Positions 11,299 through 23,903 of a stretch of 64,000 nt of DNA are shown here, one piece after another. Source of the stretch: an uncultured delta proteobacterium (GTDB taxonomy: Bacteria > Myxococcota_A > Polyangia > Fen-1088); the NCBI GenBank assembly GCA_963796685.1, contig CAWCMR010000013.1:96001-160000 (forward strand). The letters are read 5' to 3'. Within the stretch, counting starts at the first letter, position 1. Each line of letters opens with the position of its first letter. A program made the position numbers and the translations under genes. The notes below the pieces were generated by a model, which was given only the letters and a program-made list of their open reading frames with translations, did no database searches and had not been told where the DNA came from.

Positions 11299-12459
11299 AT
11301 GAAGGCGCAACGATTGATGGGTACACGCGAAATGCCGGGACGAACCTGTCGCATCTTCATCCTGCTGGGCTTGCTCGCGCCGAGAGCGGCCCGGGCCCAG
11401 GAGCCGGAGCAGAACGAAAACGTGGTGCGCGCGGAAGCGCCGATAGTCGCCGGCAACGCCGTCATTGCCAAGAAGCGCGCCCTGGCCGATGCCTTCCGCC
11501 AGGTCACCGAGCGAGCGCTGGCCGAGATCGTGAAGCAGGGGGCGCCCTTGCCCTCGCCGCTGCCGCCCGGGGTGGTGCAGCTCAAGGCCTCGCTGGCCAA
11601 TTCGGCGCAGCGGTTCGTGCGCAGCTACCGCTTGATCGAGCAGGCGACCGAAGGTGGCATCCTGCACGTCATGGTCGAGGCGGACGTGGATACGGTGCTG
11701 TTGCGCCGGGAGCTCGACCGCGCGCGCGGCTCCGCGCAGGTGGCGGCGCCGGCCGTCGCAGCGGTTCCGGTCGCGGGTTTCATGCTCCTGGCCGGGACCG
11801 CGCCCGCGACCTCGATGGCGGCGGCGGCCTTGACTGCGGCCGGCGTCCGCGTACGTGTGGATGCGGGGGCAGGTGAGGCGCAGCTCCTCGCGCTGGCCGC
11901 CAAGCAGAACGCCTACGCCCTGTTCGTCGCCGCGACCAGCGTCGACGAAGGCATGGTGCGCGGGACCACGCGCGTGTCGGTCAAGTGCGCCTTGCGCTCG
12001 CGCTTGTTCCCCGCCGGCAGCCAGGCGGCGCGCGGCCCGGCCGTCGATCGCACCGACGAGGATCGAGGCTTTGCCGCGAACGCAAGCCTGGCCCGCGTGG
12101 CTTGCTTGGAGCAGGTCTCGGGTCAGGCGGCCCGCGGGTTGGTGTCCGCGCTGCGCGCTCCCACGGTCAGCGCTCCCTTCGTGACGCTGAGGCTCGATAT
12201 CGCCGATCCCGGCGCGATCCCGACCTTGCTGCAAACTCTCAAGCGCATGGGCGCGGTGACCGCCACTGAGGTGCGTGACGTGGCCGCCAACCTGGCCGAG
12301 ATTCGGGTCTTCACGCGCATGGGCGGCGTGGCCCTTGGGCAGGTTCTGGTGCACGAGCTTGCCGGCAAGCTCACGGTCGTTCCCACGCAAAGCACGGAGG
12401 CTGTGCTCGCGCTCCGTCTGCGCCCACTCGACACGTCGGCCCTGGAGGAGAATCGTTGA
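11299..12459 (+). CDS. Secreted hypothetical protein with a FlgT_N/DUF2066-like N-terminal domain
   Basis: Signal ...IFILLGLLAPRAARAQ; VVRAEAPIVAGNAVIAKKRALADAFRQ...FVRSYRLI pattern. Start uncertain (11299 to 11332). Confidence 0.6.
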   Translation: MKAQRLMGTREMPGRTCRIFILLGLLAPRAARAQEPEQNENVVRAEAPIVAGNAVIAKKRALADAFRQVTERALAEIVKQGAPLPSPLPPGVVQLKASLANSAQRFVRSYRLIEQATEGGILHVMVEADVDTVLLRRELDRARGSAQVAAPAVAAVPVAGFMLLAGTAPATSMAAAALTAAGVRVRVDAGAGEAQLLALAAKQNAYALFVAATSVDEGMVRGTTRVSVKCALRSRLFPAGSQAARGPAVDRTDEDRGFAANASLARVACLEQVSGQAARGLVSALRAPTVSAPFVTLRLDIADPGAIPTLLQTLKRMGAVTATEVRDVAANLAEIRVFTRMGGVALGQVLVHELAGKLTVVPTQSTEAVLALRLRPLDTSALEENR

Positions 12460-12463
12460 GATC

Positions 12464-12763
12464 ATGAAAGCCTTGGTCATTTCTGCGCTGGTGATGCTGT
12501 CGTCCTTGGGTTGCGCCACGATGAGAGCCGAAAAGCCGGGCTCGCTGCACGTCGAATGCAACGTCCCCGACGCAGCCGTGTTGCTGGACGACGATCTGGC
12601 GGGACGCGCCGCGGATCTGGTGAAGCACGACAAGGCCATCCGTGCCGGCTTCTACCGGGTCGAGGTCCGCTTCCCCGGGTACTACTCGTACTTCACGGAG
12701 ATCACGGTTCCCGAGGGCGGCGCGGCGGCCGTGAAAGCCGAGCTCCACCCCCTGCTGGACTAG
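12464..12763 (+). CDS. Small PEGA-domain lipoprotein
   Basis: MKALVISALVMLSSLGC lipobox; GSLHVECNVPDAAVLLDD...AGFYRVEVRFPGY. Confidence 0.8.
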   Translation: MKALVISALVMLSSLGCATMRAEKPGSLHVECNVPDAAVLLDDDLAGRAADLVKHDKAIRAGFYRVEVRFPGYYSYFTEITVPEGGAAAVKAELHPLLD

Positions 12764-12769
12764 GCGCAC

Positions 12770-14095
12770 ATGGGCAAGGATTCGCGTCAGCAATTGATCG
12801 AGAGCCTCCGCGCCAAGGGGGGCAAGGCGATTCCCACGTCCGCGTTCGGCCGATTGCAAAAGACCGCCACGGCAGCGGCTCGGCTGGGCCTGGGCGCGCT
12901 GGCCGGCCGGCTGCGCGGCGAGGAATTCAACTTCGGCTCGCTGTCGCCCGAGGCCTTGGTCAGGCTGATTGAGACCATGGGCGAGCTCAAGGGCGTGGCC
13001 ATGAAGGCCGGGCAGATCCTGTCCTATTTCGACGGCTCGTTGCCGCCCGAGGCGCGGCGTCTTCTGTCGGTGTTGCAGGTGATGTCCCAGCCCACGGCCT
13101 TTGCGCTCATCCAACGCACCATCACGGAGGATCTGGGGGCGCGCGGCCGGGCGTTGCTGGCGCGCCTCGAACCGGAAGCCGTCGCCAGCGCGTCGATCGG
13201 TCAGGTCCATCGCGCGCTTCTCGAAGACGGCAGGCGCGTGGCCGTCAAGGTCCGGCACCCCGGCATCGAGGAGGCGATCCGCGCCGATTTCAAGACCGCC
13301 GCCGTCGGCAGCTTCTTTGCTCACCTCGCAGTTCCCGGCGCCCATGTCGAGGACTTCATGGAGGAAGCCGAGGCGCGCTTTCTCGAGGAATGCGATTATG
13401 CGCTGGAGGCGCGCCGGCAGATCCGCTTTGGCGAGATCTATGCCGGGCATCCCTCCATCGCCATCCCGGCAATCCACCGCGACCTGTGCGGGCCACGGGT
13501 TCTGACCTCCACCTGGCACGACGGCGCCGGTCTCGAGGCCTTCCTTGGTTCGGCGCGCTTCGCCGCCGAACGGGTACGGGCGGCGCGCTCTCTCTATGAG
13601 TTCTACGTCGGCACCCTGTACCGCAACGGCCTGTTCAACGCGGATCCCCACCCCGGCAATCTGCTCTTTGCTCCCGACGGCCGCGTGACCATCCTCGATC
13701 ACGGCTGCGTGCGTGAATTCGATCCCGACGTCGTGACCTGGCTGGCGCGGCTGTCGCGGGCGGTCCGCGCGGACGATCCGCAGCAGATTCAAACCGCGCT
13801 GGTCGCTGTCGGCATGTTCGAGCCCACGCGTGATTTCGCCGTCACGAGGGCGATGCTGCGCGGGTTCTACGCGCCCCTGCTCGAATCCGGACGCCACAGG
13901 GTCGAGCCCGACCAGGCTATTTCCATGGCGCAGGTGGCGAAGCTGAAGAAGAGCCTTTTGCGCATGCGCCTGCCGAGCAAGCTGATGTTCTTGTTTCGCA
14001 TTCGCATTGGCCTCTACGCCGTGCTGGCGCGCATCGGCGCCAAGCTGGATTGGATCGAGCTCGAAGAAGAGCTGGCCGATCCGGCGGCGGGCTGA
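12770..14095 (+). CDS. ABC1/UbiB/AarF family atypical kinase
   Basis: LKGVAMKAGQ (KxGQ), ASASIGQVHRA, VAVKVRHPG, ADPHPGN, LDHG. Confidence 0.95.
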   Translation: MGKDSRQQLIESLRAKGGKAIPTSAFGRLQKTATAAARLGLGALAGRLRGEEFNFGSLSPEALVRLIETMGELKGVAMKAGQILSYFDGSLPPEARRLLSVLQVMSQPTAFALIQRTITEDLGARGRALLARLEPEAVASASIGQVHRALLEDGRRVAVKVRHPGIEEAIRADFKTAAVGSFFAHLAVPGAHVEDFMEEAEARFLEECDYALEARRQIRFGEIYAGHPSIAIPAIHRDLCGPRVLTSTWHDGAGLEAFLGSARFAAERVRAARSLYEFYVGTLYRNGLFNADPHPGNLLFAPDGRVTILDHGCVREFDPDVVTWLARLSRAVRADDPQQIQTALVAVGMFEPTRDFAVTRAMLRGFYAPLLESGRHRVEPDQAISMAQVAKLKKSLLRMRLPSKLMFLFRIRIGLYAVLARIGAKLDWIELEEELADPAAG

Positions 14096-14548: not shown

Positions 14549-16174
14549 ATGAAACGCTTCGCTCTCACCATCGCGTTTGTGGTCGGTGCCTGCGCCAAGC
14601 AACCGCGTAGCATGGCCGAGACCAAGACGGTTGCGCCGCCAGCGTCAGCCAAGGCGGCTTCCGCCGCGGAGACCAAGCGCATCCGGCGGGCACAGGTCGC
14701 GGGCTCGTGGTACCCAGGGGACAAGGAGCACCTCGCACCGTTCATCGATGAGGTGCTCGACGAGGTGAAACCTCCTAAGGTCGACGGCAAGGTCATTGCC
14801 TTGATCTCGCCGCACGCGGGCTATCGCTTTTCGGGCAAGGCGGCGGCGACGGGCTATGCCCTGCTGCGCGGGCAGGATATCCGGCGGGTGATCGTGTTGG
14901 CGATTTCCCACCACCTGCCGTTCCGCGGGGCCTCCATCCCGGACGTTACGCACTTCGAAACCCCGCTCGGGCTCATTCCCCTCGACAGCGCCGCCGTGGC
15001 GCGCCTGCGCCGCAGCTCGGTGGTCGGTGACGTCGAGCGGGCCGAGATGGGGGAACATTCACTGGAGATGCAGTTGCCCTTTCTCCAGCGTGTGCTGCCG
15101 AGCTTCAGCCTGGTACCCATCCTGGTAGGAGAAATGCGCGACGCGGACTACGCCGCGCTGGCCGATGTCTTGGCCGAGATCGTCGACGCGCACACCCTGG
15201 TCGTGGCTTCCAGCGATTTCACCCATCGGGGTGAGAACTACGGCTACGAGGTTCCGGAGGGCAAGGGAACGATTCAGGAACGGCTCGCCCGCGTGGACGA
15301 CGGGTCGGTCGAACAGATCCTCAAGCTGCGGCGACGCGGTCTGCTCGACCACGCGGAGCGAACCGGCACGACCATCTGCGGGCTGCATCCCATCGCGCTC
15401 TTGCTGGAGCTCCTCTCGAAATTCCCTGGCGTGCGCGGGCAGGTCGTCAGTCGTTACACGTCGGGCGACGTGACCTCGGATTGGTCGAGCAGCGTGACAT
15501 ACGTGGATGTGGCGTTCACGGGGAAATGGCCTGAGAATTCCAAACTGACGGCGGCCAGGGTAGGGGGAGAGAAGATGTTTCCACTCAGCGACGAAGATCG
15601 GACCACACTGTTGCGCTTGGCGCGGGCCTCGCTCGAGGCCTCCGTGCACAAGGGCGCCTTCGATGCGTCGGTCAAGAAGGCGGTTCCCATGACGCCATCG
15701 CTCGGACGCAAGGCCGGTGCCTTCGTCACCTTGAAGTGCAAGATGAACGACGACGGGCGCTGCGTGGGACGCGGGGACGACTTGCGCGGCTGCATCGGCA
15801 CCATCGAGCCCACGGACTCCGTGTACGACACGGTGGCCATGCGCGCGGCCAGCGCGGCGCTGGAGGACACGCGTTTTCCGCATACCGTCAGCGTGCCGGA
15901 ATTGCCCTTCATCACCGTCGAGATCTCGGTGCTGACGCCGCCCGTGCCGGTGAAGAGCGCCGAGGAAATCGTCATCGGGAAACACGGGATCATCCTCAGC
16001 TCGGGCTGGAGTCGCGCGACGTTCCTGCCCCAGGTCGCGTCCGAGCAGGGCTGGGATCGCGAGACCACGCTGCGCCACCTGGCGCGCAAGGCCGGGCTCG
16101 GCGAAGACGCATGGAAGAAGGCGGAATACCGGGTCTACGAAGCCATTGTTTTCGGCGAAGACCAACACCGCTAG
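14549..16174 (+). CDS. amrB: AmmeMemoRadiSam protein B (MEMO1) fused to protein A (AMMECR1), with lipoprotein signal
   Basis: MKRFALTIAFVVGAC lipobox. MEMO motifs: AGSWYP, SPHAGYRFSG, EHSLEMQLPFLQ, ASSDFTH, TICG. AMMECR1 motifs: GAFVTL, LRGCIG, EISVLT, ATFLPQVA.EQGWD, LARKAG. Confidence 0.92.
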   Translation: MKRFALTIAFVVGACAKQPRSMAETKTVAPPASAKAASAAETKRIRRAQVAGSWYPGDKEHLAPFIDEVLDEVKPPKVDGKVIALISPHAGYRFSGKAAATGYALLRGQDIRRVIVLAISHHLPFRGASIPDVTHFETPLGLIPLDSAAVARLRRSSVVGDVERAEMGEHSLEMQLPFLQRVLPSFSLVPILVGEMRDADYAALADVLAEIVDAHTLVVASSDFTHRGENYGYEVPEGKGTIQERLARVDDGSVEQILKLRRRGLLDHAERTGTTICGLHPIALLLELLSKFPGVRGQVVSRYTSGDVTSDWSSSVTYVDVAFTGKWPENSKLTAARVGGEKMFPLSDEDRTTLLRLARASLEASVHKGAFDASVKKAVPMTPSLGRKAGAFVTLKCKMNDDGRCVGRGDDLRGCIGTIEPTDSVYDTVAMRAASAALEDTRFPHTVSVPELPFITVEISVLTPPVPVKSAEEIVIGKHGIILSSGWSRATFLPQVASEQGWDRETTLRHLARKAGLGEDAWKKAEYRVYEAIVFGEDQHR

Positions 16175-16397
16175 CCCGCATTGTTCACCACGATAGGCTT
16201 GCCGACGGGAATGCCTGAAGGGAGCGTTTCCTGTACCACGAAGAGTGGCGGGCTAGCTCGATTGTCATGGGAACCCTGGGAGGGTTCCCAAACCCTCCCG
16301 CGACGCTTCGCTGCCGGCAAAGCCGGCAGGCTCCGCACGCGTTTGCTAGCCCGCGCGGGATATCGTGTTAGCGCGACTCATGAGTAGTGCGGGCTAG
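16170..16397. repeat. Two CTAG-bounded inverted-repeat units flanking two hairpins
   Basis: GCTAGCCCGC (16170-16179) pairs with GCGGGCTAGC (16248-16257). GCTAGCCCGC (16345-16354) pairs with GCGGGCTAG (16389-16397). Between the units lie the hairpins gggagggtt-ccca-aaccctccc and ctgccggc-aaa-gccggcag. Confidence 0.65.
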
Positions 16398-16422
16398 AAC
16401 GATCACGCGCTATACTTCGGGC

Positions 16423-17481
16423 GTGGCTGGGGACGAGAACAGATCGGATCGCCGCCGCTTTCTGCAGACCTTGGGCGCGGGTGCCTTGGCGGTCACGGGT
16501 TGCAGCTCGTCGTGCGCGGGCTCGCACGTGGCTCGTGTGCAATCCACGCTCGTTGCGACCAGGACGCAAGCAGCGCTCGCCAAGCTGCCACCGGGCAAGC
16601 CGCGCGTGGTGGTGGTGCGGGCCAAGAAGGTTCTCGGCGATGGCTACGATGCGGATCGCGGAGCCCTGCGCGCCATGCTCGAGGCCGGTTTGATGGCGCT
16701 GTCGGGAGAGAAGAGTGGCAGCGCCGCTCTTGCCCGATACGTTCGTCCGGGCGAGCGGGTCGGTCTGAAGATCAACGGTTTGGCCGGCCGCAAGGCCGCC
16801 ACCCACGTCGAGCTGGTGGACGAGCTCTCGGCGTTGCTCGGCAAGGCCGGCATCGACGGGCGCCAACAGATCGCGTTCGATCGGTTCGCGCGGGATCTCA
16901 GGGCGTCCGGCTTTTCCAGCCAACTGCAACGTGGCGACTATCGCTGTATCGGCAACGACGAGGCCGGCCACGAGGACGAGCTGGTGCAGATGCCGTCCTC
17001 GGCCTCGCGCCTGTCCCGCGTGCTCACGACCCAGGTGGACGCCGTGCTCAATCTCCCCATCCTCAAGCAGCACATGCTGGCGGGCGTGACCGGCGCGCTC
17101 AAGAACAACTTCGGCTGCATCCACAATCCCAACAAGATGCACCTCGACAACTGCGATCCGTACATCGCCGAGGTCAACGCGGTGCCGGCCGTGCGCGACA
17201 AGCAGCGATTGGTCGTCATGGATGCGCTCCGACCGGTGGTCGACAACGGTCCCTCGTATCAACCCGGCATGGCCGAGGTGGCGAATACCCTGCTCTTTGC
17301 CACCGATCTCGTCGCCGTCGACACGGTCGGCCTCGGCATCGTGGAAGACTTGCGCGCCAAGCGCGACCTGCCGAGCCTTGCCAAGGCGGGAATGGCGCCA
17401 ACCTATCTCGCCACCGCGAGCAGGATGGGACTTGGGGTGTCCGAACGCCCGGGCATCGAGATCGTAACAATCGAGGTTTAG
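16423..17481 (+). CDS. DUF362 domain protein with a twin-arginine signal
   Basis: SDRRRFLQTLGAGALAVTGC; PGERVGLKIN, LNLPILKQH, GVTGALKNNFG, DLVAVD. GTG 16423 lies 6 nt after TATACT. Confidence 0.88.
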   Translation: MAGDENRSDRRRFLQTLGAGALAVTGCSSSCAGSHVARVQSTLVATRTQAALAKLPPGKPRVVVVRAKKVLGDGYDADRGALRAMLEAGLMALSGEKSGSAALARYVRPGERVGLKINGLAGRKAATHVELVDELSALLGKAGIDGRQQIAFDRFARDLRASGFSSQLQRGDYRCIGNDEAGHEDELVQMPSSASRLSRVLTTQVDAVLNLPILKQHMLAGVTGALKNNFGCIHNPNKMHLDNCDPYIAEVNAVPAVRDKQRLVVMDALRPVVDNGPSYQPGMAEVANTLLFATDLVAVDTVGLGIVEDLRAKRDLPSLAKAGMAPTYLATASRMGLGVSERPGIEIVTIEV

Positions 17482-17483
17482 CG

Positions 17484-18611
17484 ATGGTTTCCCGACGAGA
17501 CTTCTTCATCACCTGCGGCGGCGCGGGCTGCGCTTTGGCCGCGGGCCTTTCGGCAAGCAGCGTGCTTGGACCGTCGAGGCGGGCCTTCGCCGGCAGCACG
17601 CCGCGCGCCTTTCCTGCCCGCTTTTGGAAGAAGCTGCCGGAAAAGCGCATCGAGTGCGGGCTTTGCCCCAAGCACTGCAAGGTCGAGGATCGCGAGCGCG
17701 GCTTTTGTGGCGTGCGCGAGAACCACGACGGCGAGTACAAGACCCTGGTGTGGGGCCAGCCCTGCGCCGTGCACGTGGATCCCATCGAGAAGAAGCCGCT
17801 CTTTCACTTCCTGCCAGGCAGCCGCGCTTTTTCCGTCGCCACCGCGGGGTGCAACCTGGAGTGCAAGTGCTGCCAGAACTGGGACATCTCGCAGTCGAAG
17901 CCCGAAGACGTCGACTTCCAATTCATGCCGCCAGACGAGGTGGTGCGCGGGGCCAAGGACTACGACGCCTGCGTGACCTTCACCTATTCCGAGCCCATCG
18001 TCTTTCTCGAATACTGCATCGACACCGCCAAGGCCGCGCGCAAGGCCGGGGTGCGCACCACCATGGTCACGGGCGGCTCGGGCGAGGCCGAGCCCATGAA
18101 GGAGGTGCTGCAATACCTCGACGCCGTCAAGGTCGACCTCAAGGGCTTCACCGAGGACTACTACCAGCGCCTGTGCAAAGGCAAGCTCAAGCCCGTGCTC
18201 GACACCCTCGAGGTCATTCGCGCCAGTGGCGTGTGGCTCGAGCTGGTCCACCTGTGCGTGCCCGGTCAGAACGACAGCGAGCCCGAGATCCTCGCCATGT
18301 GCCGCTGGGTGAAGACCCACCTGGGCGCGGACGTGCCGGTGCACTTCACGCGCTTTCACCCGGAATACCAGATGAAGAACGTGCCCCCCACGCCCAACGC
18401 CACCCTGGTCCGCTGCCGCGAGATCGGCCTGGCCGAGGGGCTGCACTTCGTCTACACCGGCAACGTGCCGGGCCTGGCCGGTGAGGACACCTTCTGTCCG
18501 AAATGCGGCAAGGTCGTGGTCGCGCGGCGGGGCTTCGAGCTGGAGGCCGTGCACCTGAAGGCCGGCCGCTGCGAGTTTTGTGGCACTGTCATTCCCGGGG
18601 TATGGAGCTAG
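17484..18611 (+). CDS. amrS: AmmeMemoRadiSam system radical SAM enzyme with a twin-arginine signal
   Basis: MVSRRDFFITCGG; CGLCPKHC..CGVR; DPIEKKPLFHF; CxxxCxxC in GCNLECKCCQNWDISQ; RFHPEY; C-terminal CPKC..CEFC. Confidence 0.94.
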   Translation: MVSRRDFFITCGGAGCALAAGLSASSVLGPSRRAFAGSTPRAFPARFWKKLPEKRIECGLCPKHCKVEDRERGFCGVRENHDGEYKTLVWGQPCAVHVDPIEKKPLFHFLPGSRAFSVATAGCNLECKCCQNWDISQSKPEDVDFQFMPPDEVVRGAKDYDACVTFTYSEPIVFLEYCIDTAKAARKAGVRTTMVTGGSGEAEPMKEVLQYLDAVKVDLKGFTEDYYQRLCKGKLKPVLDTLEVIRASGVWLELVHLCVPGQNDSEPEILAMCRWVKTHLGADVPVHFTRFHPEYQMKNVPPTPNATLVRCREIGLAEGLHFVYTGNVPGLAGEDTFCPKCGKVVVARRGFELEAVHLKAGRCEFCGTVIPGVWS

Positions 18612-20779
18612 TCGCCACCTCCGGGGTCCGCCGAGCCGTCACGGTTGCCGTCGCGGCCGCGGGGTTCGCCGCGCTGCTGGCGCAAGTGGTCCTGCTGCGC
18701 GAGCTCCTCGCTTCCTCGCAAGGCAACGAGCTGGTGCTGGGCATCGTGCTCGCGCTGTGGCTGCTGCTCGTGGGGCTGGCGAGCGCTCTCGGTGGGCGGA
18801 TGGTGCGACGGCCGGAACGGGCGGCACGATGGCTCGGCCGCTTGCTGCTGTTGGCGCCGTTGCTCCTCTTCGCCTCGCTGTGGCTGACCCGCTGGGCAGG
18901 GCCGTCGGCGCTGGGACAGACGCCGTCCATTTCGGTTCTGGTGGGCGTGTCGGTGGTCGCCCTGGCACCTGCGTGCCTGCTCGGCGGACTGTGTTTCGCC
19001 TGGGCCCTGGCAGCGCTTCCAGGCCAGGGTCGCGCCGCGGGCCTCTACGCCGCGGAGACCCTGGGCTCGGCCGTTGCAGGGGCCTTGTTTCACTTCTTGC
19101 TCGCCGATCGGCTCTCCAGCTCATGGATCGTGCTCCTCGCGGGGGCCGGCTGCGTGGCGGCGAGCCTTCCCCTGGCCTTTGGGCGCAGATGGGTCGGCGT
19201 CACGACCGGCGTGGCCATGGTGGCGCTGTCGGCAATCGCCTGCCCAGCGCTCTCCACGGCCCTGGCGACGGCCCGCTTCCCGGGCGAGCACGTCCTTGCC
19301 CTGCGGCCCTCACGCTACGGGCTGCTTGCCGTCGTCGAGCGCGGCGGGCAGCGGGTGTTCTTTCACGACGGCGAGCTGTTGTTCACCAGCGAGGACGAAA
19401 TCGCAGCCGAGGAAAGCACGCACCTGCCTCTGCTTCTGCACCCGAATCCGCGACGGCTCTTGCTCGTGGGCGGCGGTCTCGGCGGGGGTCTCGTCGAGGC
19501 GCTCAAGCACGAGCCCGACCGCATCGACTACGTGGAGATGGATCCGGGCGTGTTTCCGCTCGCGCACAGGTTCGCCGACGAGGCCACGCGGGCCGCGCTC
19601 GCGGATCCCCGTGTTCACGCGGTGGCGGCCGATGCACGGCAGTGGCTACGCGAATCGGTCGGCCGATACGACGTCATCGTCATCAACCTGCCGATCCCCG
19701 AGAACGCGCTCCTGGCACGCCTGCTCAGCCGCGAATGCTTCGAGGACGCCCGTCGCGCCCTGGCCGCAGGTGGAATCTTGGCCCTGGCCACGCCCGGATC
19801 GGACGCCTACCTCGACGCGGGCGCCAGGCAACGGCACGCCTCGCTCCTGGCTGCGCTCGACGCCGTCTTCCCCGCCGTGGGCGTGGCCCCTGGCGGCCAA
19901 ACCATCCTGTGGGCGGCCGAGAAGGATGTGGATGCCCGACCGACCGTGCTGGCAGCGCGCCTGGGGCAGCGCGGGCTTCATCTCGCACAAGTCGGGAAGA
20001 CCTGGCTTTTCGATCGCCTGCTGCCCTTTCACGCCCGGGACTACCGCCGAGCCGTCGCGACGGCCCTTCCCATCGAGAATCGCGACTTTCGTCCCGTGGT
20101 GTACCTCTTCGGCCTCATCGAGACCTTGCAGCGTTTTTCGCAGCCGGTGGCCCGATCCGCGCTCGTGCTCGCGCGCGCGCGGTGGACGCCCTGGGTGCTC
20201 TTGGCCGCTGTGCTCGGCGGAGCGGCAGCGTTCGTTGGGCTCCGGCGCGGACGGCCCGCCCCTGCCTTCGCCGTGGAGGCCTCCGGTGCCGCGGGAATGG
20301 CCTTGCAGTTGGTTTTGCTCCTCGCCTTTCAAGCCCTGCGCGGAAGCCTCTACCATGCCATGGGAGGGCTCATCGCCGGCTTCATGGCCGGCATGGGCGT
20401 TGGCGCGCTGGTGGCGGGGCGATTCCTCGGCCGGCCGCGTGTGCTCGCCCGCGCTTGCGCGGGGGCGGCGGGGGCGGGGCTGCTGACTGTGTTGGCCCTC
20501 GAGCTTGGGCGTGCGTTTCCCGGTTGGAGCGCCACCCTCATCATCCTTGCCACCATCGTGGTGGGCGCCAGCGTGGGCGCGGTCTATCCCGTGGCCGTGC
20601 ACGTGGCCAAGCTCCCCAACGCCGCCTCACGGCTCTATGCCTGGGATCTCGCGGGCGCATCCATCGCCGCGGCGTTTGTCGCTCTGGTGGCCATTCCGCT
20701 GCTCGGGCTGGCCGAGGTAGCGCTGCTCTCGGCGGTCCTTTGCGCGGCGGCGGCGGTGGCGAATCTCGGATCAGCTTGA
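18602..20779 (+). CDS. Multi-TM membrane protein fused to a spermidine-synthase-like class I SAM-binding domain
   Basis: Hydrophobic N- and C-terminal blocks (QVVLLREL..SQGNEL, YAAETLGS, YAWDLAGA). The central domain has LLLVGGGLGG, YVEMDP, DARQWL, YDVIVINLP. Start overlaps the amrS end. Confidence 0.88.
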   Translation: MELVATSGVRRAVTVAVAAAGFAALLAQVVLLRELLASSQGNELVLGIVLALWLLLVGLASALGGRMVRRPERAARWLGRLLLLAPLLLFASLWLTRWAGPSALGQTPSISVLVGVSVVALAPACLLGGLCFAWALAALPGQGRAAGLYAAETLGSAVAGALFHFLLADRLSSSWIVLLAGAGCVAASLPLAFGRRWVGVTTGVAMVALSAIACPALSTALATARFPGEHVLALRPSRYGLLAVVERGGQRVFFHDGELLFTSEDEIAAEESTHLPLLLHPNPRRLLLVGGGLGGGLVEALKHEPDRIDYVEMDPGVFPLAHRFADEATRAALADPRVHAVAADARQWLRESVGRYDVIVINLPIPENALLARLLSRECFEDARRALAAGGILALATPGSDAYLDAGARQRHASLLAALDAVFPAVGVAPGGQTILWAAEKDVDARPTVLAARLGQRGLHLAQVGKTWLFDRLLPFHARDYRRAVATALPIENRDFRPVVYLFGLIETLQRFSQPVARSALVLARARWTPWVLLAAVLGGAAAFVGLRRGRPAPAFAVEASGAAGMALQLVLLLAFQALRGSLYHAMGGLIAGFMAGMGVGALVAGRFLGRPRVLARACAGAAGAGLLTVLALELGRAFPGWSATLIILATIVVGASVGAVYPVAVHVAKLPNAASRLYAWDLAGASIAAAFVALVAIPLLGLAEVALLSAVLCAAAAVANLGSA

Positions 20780-21855: not shown

Positions 21856-22860
21856 TCAGAACCAGTAGCCGCCGCCCGCCCGCAACCCGAAGAAACGCGA
21901 ATGGACCTCGACGTCGGCCGACTCGCCGGTGGTGGCGCTTTGCACCTGGTTGTTCTGGAAGCCCCATTGGTAGGTGCCGCGGAAATCCAGGAAGCCGTGC
22001 TGCCCCAACGCCCAGATCATGCCGAAGCCGGTCTGGACGAGGAAGCCGTGGGCCGTGCCGGGATCGGCGTAGACCTTGACCAGGTTGGAGGCAAACAGGA
22101 GCGAATATCCGGGGGCCGCGAACACCAGCAAGCGGAGCCGGCGGGCCGCGGAAACCGTCACGCCGAGCTGGGGAAGGAAGTCGACTTCGCGTCCGGTGCC
22201 GCCGAAGAGGTTGTTGTTCGAAGACGAGGCGGGGCCGGCGAGACTCCACTTGACCGAAGGCAGGAACTGCACCGCGAAGGCCAGGTACAGATAGCGGTGC
22301 AGGTCGACTTGCACGAATGGAACGATGCCGGCGGTCCCGGCGGTGCTGCCCGAATAGGCCAGCAGGGGCTCGCCTTTGTAATTGAGGCTGTAGGACAGGG
22401 TCCCTTGCGGCATGACAACGAGGGCAGCGCCGATTCGCAACCTGCCGCTCGGTAGGGGCGAGGGCGGAGGTTCGGCGCTGACCGCCGGCCGGTAACCGGC
22501 GCCGGCGTAGGCTGGAGGATAACCCGGGTAGGGCGAGGCGTAGGGTGAGTAGCCCCGCGGGTAGGTCGGGTATCCGGGAGGGTAAGGAGCAGGGGGCGGA
22601 TAGCCGTACGCGGGCGAATAGGGATAACCAGGTGGATAGGGATAGGCGGGCGGATAGGGATAGGGCGGCTGCGCTGCGCCCGGGGCAGGCGGCGGCGTCT
22701 GGGCAGGCGGCTGCTGCTGCAACCATGGGGCTGGCACGGCACTCGGCGAGGCGGTGGGCGTCGGAGGTGCCGGCGTTGCTCCCGGCGCGGGGCCGCTTTG
22801 CGCGAAGGCTGGCCCAGCCAAGAAACCTAGCGCCGCCACCGCGACCAAGGGGCTTCTCAT
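21856..22860 (-). CDS. Outer-membrane beta-barrel protein with a Pro/Tyr-rich N-terminal linker
   Basis: Signal MRSPLVAVAALGFLAGPAFAQ; YPYPP/YPPGY repeats; amphipathic strands; terminal GGGYWF. Confidence 0.8.
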   Translation of the reverse strand: MRSPLVAVAALGFLAGPAFAQSGPAPGATPAPPTPTASPSAVPAPWLQQQPPAQTPPPAPGAAQPPYPYPPAYPYPPGYPYSPAYGYPPPAPYPPGYPTYPRGYSPYASPYPGYPPAYAGAGYRPAVSAEPPPSPLPSGRLRIGAALVVMPQGTLSYSLNYKGEPLLAYSGSTAGTAGIVPFVQVDLHRYLYLAFAVQFLPSVKWSLAGPASSSNNNLFGGTGREVDFLPQLGVTVSAARRLRLLVFAAPGYSLLFASNLVKVYADPGTAHGFLVQTGFGMIWALGQHGFLDFRGTYQWGFQNNQVQSATTGESADVEVHSRFFGLRAGGGYWF

Positions 22861-23903
22861 GGCTGCACCCCCTGCAAGAGCGCGTATCGGGCAACTCTCG
22901 CTCGCATGATGTCCATGATTTCCAGCGCGCGGTTCTCGAAGGAAAGGAAGCTCGCCCCCTCGTACTTGGAGGCATCGAGGACATTGCCATAGCGGGCGGT
23001 CGCTTGCTCGATGGTCGTAAGCTGGCTCGAGTTGAGCGGCAGGTCGCACACCGTCGCGATCGGGTTCATCAGGTTGGCCCCGTAGGACTGAGGATCGAGG
23101 TGCTCGAGCCCGTAGGCGTGACCGACCTCGTGGGCGATCACGATGTCGGGCTCGGGCAGCACGAAATCGGTCAGGTTCACGCCGATGAAGACCGTGGGCG
23201 AGAAGTCCGACTCGTTCAGGACATCGGCCAAGGATGTTCCCAGGTCCGAGCCCGCGGCCGAGTTGACGAGGGCTTGCGAGAGCCCGAGGCCGGCCACCCC
23301 CCAGGCCATCTCGGAGGCGTCCGGACTGGGATCGAGTGCCGCGATCCGTTTAAGCAGCACGACGTTGATGACGTTCTCCTCGGGCTCGGAATAAGCGTGA
23401 AAGAACGCCTTGACGTTGTAAAACATGGCCTCGCCTATGGCCTGGTTGCAGTCGGTGGTGGGGTAGGCCGACGAGGCGCAACTGGGATCCACGTTCGTGT
23501 TCGTGCGCATCCAGTCGGTGATGGCCTGCTCGTTGAGCACGATGGCGTGGTCGAGCGGAACCGAAATGACGTCGTAGCGGGTGAACATGGTCACGCCGTA
23601 GTAGTCGTAGTAGCGCTTGAGCCCGCCCGCGAAGCGGACCACGTCGTCCATGGTGATGCCATTGCCGCGAAAGATGCGCAGCTCGGTACGGCGGTCGAGC
23701 TTGCGCGGCACGTACGGCGCGCACTTCGCATCCGGGGTGTAGTCGAAGAGACTCTGGTACGAGGTCGGGTCGCCGGGAGCTCCGGGAAAGCCCGGATCCT
23801 GGACGACCGGTTCGAAGAAATCCACGCGCTCGTCGGAGCCGCAGCCCGAAGTCGCCAGACCGGCCACGAGCATGAGGATGGTTACTAGAATGATGGGACG
23901 CAC
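22857..23903 (-). CDS. Metzincin zinc metalloprotease lipoprotein
   Basis: Lipobox ATSGC; HEVGHAYGLEH (HExxHxxGxxH) followed by a Met-turn (NLMNP); coupled to the barrel gene by an ATGA overlap. Confidence 0.85.
   Translation of the reverse strand: MRPIILVTILMLVAGLATSGCGSDERVDFFEPVVQDPGFPGAPGDPTSYQSLFDYTPDAKCAPYVPRKLDRRTELRIFRGNGITMDDVVRFAGGLKRYYDYYGVTMFTRYDVISVPLDHAIVLNEQAITDWMRTNTNVDPSCASSAYPTTDCNQAIGEAMFYNVKAFFHAYSEPEENVINVVLLKRIAALDPSPDASEMAWGVAGLGLSQALVNSAAGSDLGTSLADVLNESDFSPTVFIGVNLTDFVLPEPDIVIAHEVGHAYGLEHLDPQSYGANLMNPIATVCDLPLNSSQLTTIEQATARYGNVLDASKYEGASFLSFENRALEIMDIMRARVARYALLQGVQP

Follow-up and report, generated by a model that had tools for sequence, protein, structure and literature searches.

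An operon of four genes, encoding an AmmeMemoRadiSam system in which every soluble component carries an export signal, was found in a 64,000-nucleotide stretch of DNA from an uncultured delta proteobacterium (Polyangia; assembly GCA_963796685.1, contig CAWCMR010000013.1, positions 96,001 to 160,000); this whole stretch is called the window below. The operon occupies positions 14549 to 20779 and encodes a fused AmrB-AmrA (Memo-AMMECR1) protein, a DUF362 protein, the radical S-adenosylmethionine (SAM) protein AmrS and a large membrane protein. The sequences and the structure models, taken together, indicate that it is probably an extracytoplasmic variant of AmmeMemoRadiSam which is docked on a transporter of the major facilitator superfamily (MFS). 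The need for SAM and a low-potential electron, and the oxygen sensitivity of the clusters, are the reasons why radical SAM enzymes are regarded as strictly cytoplasmic. An exported or envelope-located system had been put forward in an original prediction made from the letters of the window, and it is now supported by export leaders, signals on the partner proteins, an outward-facing transporter domain, a complex model, fusion proteins and the presence of TatC. We note that all these lines of evidence are computational.

Operon organisation and export signals

The four genes are co-oriented, all on the + strand, as originally described. The first gene (14549-16174, +) encodes a fusion protein of 541 amino acids with Memo at residues 48-319 and AMMECR1 at residues 355-533 (PF01875, 194 bits; PF01871, 158 bits) and lies 1.3 kb upstream of amrS. 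It is followed by an intergenic gap of 212 nt (16175-16386) in which no feature was seen and in which a scan for promoter and terminator patterns stayed at chance level. The DUF362 gene (16387-17481, +) starts with GTG and encodes 364 amino acids (PF04015, 83 bits, cut-off 24). Only 2 nt separate its stop from the start of amrS (17484-18611, +; 375 amino acids). The gene of the membrane protein (18602-20779, +; 725 amino acids, a Spermine_synth domain and 14 helices) overlaps amrS by 10 nt, counted from its ATG to the amrS stop, which agrees with the overlapping multi-helix protein of spermidine-synthase fold that had been predicted.

The families AmrB (TIGR04336, 222.3 bits, cut-off 26), AmrA (TIGR04335, 142.7 bits, cut-off 99) and AmrS (TIGR04337, 396.3 bits, cut-off 220; also PF04055, 67.4 bits) are all found together above their cut-offs. 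The operon thus has the same three families as canonical AmmeMemoRadiSam, with intact motifs. It differs in the export signals, in the fusion of AmrA and AmrB and in the addition of the DUF362 and MFS/spermidine-synthase-like genes. The radical SAM motif CxxxCxxC of AmrS consists of C123, C127 and C130, and there are further cysteine motifs at the N terminus (CxxCxxxC...C) and the C terminus (CxxC...CxxC); CxxxCxxC and the AmmeMemoRadiSam family motifs are invariant in 29 aligned leader-bearing AmrS proteins. The nearest solved relative of AmrS by sequence is a pyruvate formate-lyase activating enzyme (3c8f, E 2.9e-6), and the corresponding model TIGR02493 matches at E 8e-19, below its cut-off. 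Unlike the glycyl-radical activases, AmrS has the extra N- and C-terminal cysteine motifs and a twin-arginine translocation (Tat) leader, and there is no glycyl-radical enzyme nearby.

The twin-arginine leaders were read with the Tat-signal consensus. The first 15 residues of the fusion protein (+) form a lipoprotein signal of Sec type, in which MKR is followed by a hydrophobic run and by VGAC (Cys15, 14591-14593), so the lipobox noted earlier is there. The twin-arginine leaders that had been assigned to the other two soluble proteins were also recovered. DUF362 has RRR at residues 22-24, then FLQ, an uncharged run and, in addition, a lipobox VTGC with Cys39 (leader residues 1-39, 16387-16503, +; these elements span residues 19-39). 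AmrS has SRRDFF at residues 3-8 (RR at 4-5); after this come 23 residues without charge, two arginines and AFA at 34-36 (residues 1-36, 17484-17591, +). The elements of a Tat signal can be read directly in both: the twin arginines, the uncharged h-region and, after it, a lipobox (DUF362) or a cleavage site (AmrS). AmrS aligns to TIGR04337 only from residue 45, therefore its first 44 residues are an addition; in contrast to the canonical form, the leader precedes model position 1.

The AmrS leader is widely conserved. Among the query and its 120 best homologues (49-88% identical), 101 of 121 AmrS proteins have RR.[FL] within the first 60 residues, and judged by name their sources include Polyangia, Acidobacteria, Calditrichaeota, Armatimonadetes, Eisenbacteria and Aminicenantes. 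The other 20 are mostly fragments, N-truncated proteins or proteins whose start was called within the hydrophobic run; P0030 is truly leaderless. AmrS was matched in all 12 other genomes of the genus, in 10 of them by a leader-type gene from residue 1-2 (81-95% identity). Nine of these 10 genes are intact and the one in G002 is in two pieces (1-353 and 349-375); the match in G005 is also split, and TGA stops interrupt that in G004. A second AmrS copy, about 41-43% identical and matching only from about residue 21-45, is present in 11 of the 12 genomes.

A profile of AmrS proteins gave 80 genome loci, which together with the window make a set of 81. The N-termini, classified by eye and with a simple hydropathy script, were RR in 32 loci, KR or RK in 11 (mostly Bacteroidota), Sec-like or anchor in 14 (mostly Omnitrophota), without leader in 22 and unclear in 2. 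A tree of the catalytic domains (quick IQ-TREE, LG+G4, all 81 rows) separates 14 leaderless proteins, mostly from Pseudomonadota, as one clade (Shimodaira-Hasegawa-like approximate likelihood ratio test, SH-aLRT, 99); the sister clade (SH-aLRT 99) holds all 57 leader-bearing proteins and, besides them, the 2 unclear and 8 leaderless ones. The leaderless forms of the canonical type are thus a separate clade.

The signals of the partner proteins follow the same division. A hydrophobic N-terminus, often with a lipobox, is present in all 24 assessable fusion or main copies of the Memo or Memo-AMMECR1 partner of leader-bearing AmrS (13 RR, 4 KR and 7 Sec-like); two further Memo partners are cut by contig ends and are not among the 24. 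No signal is present on an additional Memo that L089 encodes separately, or on an additional AMMECR1 in L022. The partners of leaderless AmrS begin directly at the domain, without signal, in 10 of 14 cases. In the closest locus, L014, the order of the four genes is preserved at 59-82% identity, so the four genes do co-occur elsewhere, and the fusion orthologue (79% identical) has a hydrophobic N-terminus with a Cys.

RR leaders were found on all nine assessable DUF362 proteins adjacent to AmrS. In the orthologous DUF362 group a leader with RR plus lipobox is seen in 48 of 120 database proteins as called, and many others begin inside the leader. The source gene call of the window's DUF362 (P0245, 317 amino acids) also begins downstream of the leader (window 16387-16527), therefore the public annotation hides the signal. 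The invariant residues in 11 aligned DUF362 sequences are Lys, His, Asn and Asp, and no solved structural relative was found by sequence. A cofactor-bearing role of DUF362 would fit an export by Tat. According to a published account, DUF362 shares one Pfam clan with the LarA racemases (PMC11770544).

The membrane protein and its predicted contact with AmrS

The AlphaFold model of the membrane protein, based on an alignment of 44 sequences (predicted local distance difference test, pLDDT, 90.8; predicted template modelling score, pTM, 0.90), consists of seven helices (residues 1-225, 18602-19276, +), a soluble domain (residues 226-530, 19277-20191, +) and seven more helices (residues 531-725, 20192-20776, +). 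The soluble domain resembles spermidine synthase 1uir (template modelling score, TM-score, 0.73; Z 29.5, root-mean-square deviation, rmsd, 2.5, 272 aligned residues). The helices resemble MFS transporters such as VMAT2 (9kqa, Z 29.0, rmsd 3.5, 326 aligned; also 8zmr, Z 28.8, and 8hpj, Z 26.3); the MFS matches VMAT2, VAChT, OxlT, SotB and NarK have Z values of 26-29 over 326-351 residues. No Pfam MFS match was obtained for the window's membrane protein, and PF07690 is precomputed on one homologue. The distant homologues P0232 and P0240 (31-35% identical) carry the NCBI name 'fused MFS/spermidine synthase', and both folds of that name are confirmed here. In the orthologous group linked to AmrS the soluble domain is located between helices 7 and 8, whereas the paralogues in control genomes are partial or in another order. 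A literature search found no paper on fused MFS/spermidine synthase proteins.

MFS transporters have both termini in the cytoplasm. With both ends of the MFS part cytoplasmic and seven helices before the insert, the soluble domain would therefore lie outside. The charges of the short loops point in the same direction: in the 44 homologues the number of Lys plus Arg residues averages 19.2 on the side opposite the soluble domain and 3.4 on the side of the domain, and not one of the 44 departs from the direction of this bias. The domain at residues 226-530 is thus predicted to face the periplasm, in which it differs from SpeE.

The soluble domain shares with Thermotoga maritima SpeE the fold, the glycine loop and E121 (E312 here), which is presumably the ribose-binding glutamate. 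The equivalents of D101, D170 and D173, which we take to be the catalytic aspartates and those that select decarboxylated SAM, are replaced (L294, N362 and I365). Since residues that hold the adenosyl moiety are kept and the aspartates of aminopropyl transfer are lost, the domain more likely binds than converts an adenosyl compound; it looks like a binder rather than an aminopropyltransferase. The adenosyl-binding residues are kept across the 44 homologues, and D344 and D357 are invariant in the membrane-protein family. A genuine spermidine synthase was considered for the fourth gene and rejected, as the aspartates are replaced and the scores are below equivalog cut-offs (NCBIfam spermidine synthase equivalog, 138 against a cut-off of 472). 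An MFS fold with a non-catalytic domain that is predicted to face outward would fit the suggestion that the membrane protein may handle SAM or the substrate.

Complex modelling, proposed earlier as a check, gave a positive result for AmrS and the transporter domain. Mature AmrS (residues 45-375) and the soluble domain (226-530), each with its own alignment, reached a score of 0.81, whereas the best of three controls reached 0.00. The mark used for this score is passed by 58 of 80 solved complexes and by 2 of 110 mismatched pairs; with our own alignments as input, these counts are only a rough guide. At least 89% of the contacts are shared between the runs, and the partner pLDDT is at least 88. 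The interface includes AmrS residues 94-100 and 131-135, which are beside the radical SAM cysteines, and on the transporter side the N-terminal beta-hairpins and the helices 461-487 and 510-518. We know of no solved complex of this kind, therefore memory is an unlikely source of the model. The model supports a binding of AmrS to the soluble domain of the transporter.

Neighbourhoods, fusions and other AmrS copies

The frequency of the transporter gene varies with the leader class of AmrS. It is found within 5 kb of AmrS in 19 of 32 RR, 8 of 11 KR, 6 of 14 Sec-like and 4 of 22 leaderless loci. When only the 48 of 81 loci with 3 kb on both sides are counted, the values are 12/18, 5/7, 4/7 and 4/15, respectively. 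For 10 of the 13 RR loci without a transporter nearby the genomes were searched, and nine of them have it elsewhere as a near-full-profile match (223-890 bits, two of the nine in pieces); one is without it. Such a match was present in none of five genomes of the leaderless clade and in none of five genomes of the window's family that lack AmrS, the best matches in these controls being of 50-145 bits and partial or in another order. DUF362, whose co-occurrence with Tat-bearing amrS had also been proposed as a check, is near AmrS in only 11 of the 32 RR loci. The clustering of open reading frames within 6 kb in the 81 loci gave only generic families (sigma-54 activator, ATPase of ATP-binding cassette type), DUF6599 and CcdA-like proteins. 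DUF6599 (PF20244) is near RR-type AmrS in three loci, e.g. L019:7915-8622. A CcdA/DsbD_2-like gene (PF13386) on the same strand is found within about 3 kb in 7 of the 14 Sec-type loci (L025, L037, L042, L043, L048, L053 and L066), in three of them directly after amrS.

Fusion proteins of AmrS were sought among 1.84 billion cluster representatives, which gave 1524 matches at E <= 1e-30. The 38 long proteins among the best 150 matches were scanned against Pfam, and helices were assigned with the hydropathy script. Several architectures place AmrS behind a signal, an anchor or a membrane module. P0367 has one N-terminal helix and an FMN_bind domain before AmrS. A signal or anchor is followed by a CBM_11-like domain in P0371 and by a beta-propeller in P0379, and an anchor by a domain without assignment in P0380, in each case with AmrS after it. 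In P0375 and P0382 AmrS follows a CcdA-like DsbD_2 domain, and in P0368, P0376 and P0383 it follows FMN_bind and six helices (Fer4_5; two CxxxCP motifs on the charged side). A single chain, P0421, contains Memo, AMMECR1 and AmrS behind a signal of Sec type. The helix counts and charges would put AmrS outside in P0367, P0368, P0371, P0375, P0376, P0379, P0380, P0382 and P0383. About 20 leaderless AmrS-AMMECR1-Memo triple fusions represent the cytoplasmic type.

The FMN_bind (flavin mononucleotide-binding) domain is known from outward-facing parts of RnfG, NqrC and NosR. The fusions suggest an electron route for AmrS: relays of CcdA/DsbD type and of NosR/NapH type, the latter with a periplasmic FMN-binding domain, are fused to AmrS relatives or adjoin them, and such relays would solve the electron supply outside the membrane. 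In contrast to these relatives, the window's operon is without such modules and has DUF362 instead.

In the window's genome the transporter is single-copy, and TatC is present (PF00902, 201 bits, contig C8). The data sets listed as containing the operon were two of DNA, with shares of 0.05-0.07, and none of RNA. A second AmrS on contig C25 (276197-277244, -; loci L002/L003) is leaderless and split over two frames, either because of a frameshift or because the assembly is wrong there. At a distance of 4 kb there is a standalone AmrB, also leaderless (L004, C25:281402-282202, +). No AMMECR1 domain other than that of the operon was found in this genome, which is 88.6% complete. AmrS proteins with further peculiarities were also noted. 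In L045, L054, L063 and L082 a Tat-leader AmrS has a CxxCH insert between the leader and the first cysteine motif, which might bind haem c or an additional metal. Inteins (Intein_splicing, LAGLIDADG_3) interrupt the AmrS homologues P0448, P0451 and P0466.

Just upstream of the operon there are genes for a PEGA-domain lipoprotein (12275-12763, +) and an ABC1/UbiB-type atypical kinase (12770-14095, +). Both were considered as parts of the system and rejected, as they are not syntenic in L014. On the other side an open reading frame at 21856-23049 (-), without a Pfam match, has a signal-like N-terminus followed by a Pro/Tyr-rich region. The last residue of its C-terminal half is aromatic, as in outer-membrane proteins, and it shows partial conservation in L014.

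Proposed mechanism and alternatives

In the proposed mechanism AmrS would fold and receive its iron-sulfur clusters in the cytoplasm, Tat would carry it out, and it would dock on the outward-facing domain of the transporter. AmrS and the lipid-anchored Memo-AMMECR1 protein would then modify an envelope or exported molecule via the 5'-deoxyadenosyl radical. The transporter would supply SAM or the substrate, and the electron for SAM cleavage would come from a periplasmic relay, for which DUF362 is the only candidate in this operon. A more specific version, which we offer tentatively, as possible rather than probable, is that the MFS transporter exports SAM and hands it via its adenosyl-binding domain to docked periplasmic AmrS, with electrons arriving through DUF362, FMN-binding, CcdA-like or NosR-like relays, and that Memo-AMMECR1 completes the modification of an envelope lipid or polymer.

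A number of observations weigh against an exported and docked AmrS. To our knowledge neither a source of SAM outside the cytoplasm nor a radical SAM enzyme that works there is known. DUF362, the candidate electron partner, is found only with RR-type AmrS and there in the low share given above. No Cys is invariant in its mature part, either in the 11 aligned sequences or in the nine AmrS-adjacent proteins; the earlier idea of an Fe-S partner was thus abandoned, as conserved cysteine ligands are missing. AmrS has an N-terminus of Sec rather than Tat type in 14 loci, which does not sit easily with an insertion of the clusters before export. Eight leaderless AmrS proteins are nested within the leader-bearing clade. 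In L028, L046, L051 and L073 AmrS is leaderless in all frames, with a signal-bearing Memo-AMMECR1 (lipoprotein-type) and the transporter nearby, which means that export of AmrS is not obligatory or that AmrS hitchhikes. In the complex model the adenosyl pocket residues (291-297, 312 and 344) are outside the confident contacts, and the AmrS interface motifs DPIEKKP and CQNW also occur in the leaderless clade. The charges that flank the N-terminal helix of the fusion P0369 do not favour an outside location. Finally, the leader classes and fusion topologies come from inspection by eye and from the simple hydropathy script.

Some of these observations would be expected if AmrS acted in the cytoplasm or at the inner membrane face, with the leader serving for membrane targeting or chaperone binding, or with the partners being modified before export. 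Such an arrangement, which we regard as unlikely, would account for the four loci in which leaderless AmrS accompanies exported partners and the transporter, for the anchor of P0369, which may leave the domains inside, and for the fact that SAM and reductants are cytoplasmic. On the other hand, a complete three-part Tat signal with a cleavage-type AxA is present in the leader, which is conserved across phyla, the domain bound in the complex model is predicted to face outward in every one of the 44 homologues, and the fusions put AmrS after extracytoplasmic domains with no helix between. We likewise give little credence to the possibility that exported AmrS is only a subunit of a periplasmic Memo-AMMECR1 enzyme, either structural or for electron transfer through iron-sulfur clusters, without radical chemistry and with the transporter domain as a mere tether. 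The missing SAM source, the position of the adenosyl pocket outside the confident interface and the presence in AmrS of three cysteine motifs and nothing that requires turnover all speak for a subunit of this kind. They are opposed by the invariance of CxxxCxxC and the family motifs in the 29 leader-bearing proteins and the TIGR04337 score of 396 bits, by the adenosyl-binding residues that the transporter domain retains across its homologues, and by the fusion of relatives to electron-donating modules, as expected of an enzyme that needs reduction.

It appears very improbable that the leaders arise merely from a wrong choice of start codons and that the four genes are ordinary cytoplasmic or membrane neighbours. 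The source call of DUF362 does start after the leader, and many database orthologues are called from later starts. Nevertheless, protein-level conservation of the RR motif and the hydrophobic run extends far outside the genus, internal methionines are absent from AmrS up to residue 148, and 10 of the 12 other genomes of the genus have matches that start at residue 1-2. The operon is probably best described as an extracytoplasmic variant of AmmeMemoRadiSam that is docked on the MFS transporter.

Contexts of Memo, AMMECR1 and radical SAM proteins are reportedly described by Burroughs et al. (2019), which may bear on novelty. In the portions of the literature that our search covered, which did not include that work, neither an exported AmrS nor a Tat signal on a radical SAM enzyme was the subject of any paper listed.

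If the proposed location is true, SAM (or a SAM-loaded enzyme) and reducing power would be delivered across the membrane in a widespread lineage. Bacteria would then possess a SAM exporter, and their envelopes would undergo a modification of a new class. The function of the Memo and AMMECR1 families, some human members of which are linked to disease, would also become easier to approach. Knowing where the system acts and that a transporter is docked to it would narrow the search for the substrate, and the predicted contact between AmrS and the transporter, together with the relay fusions, makes these ideas directly testable.

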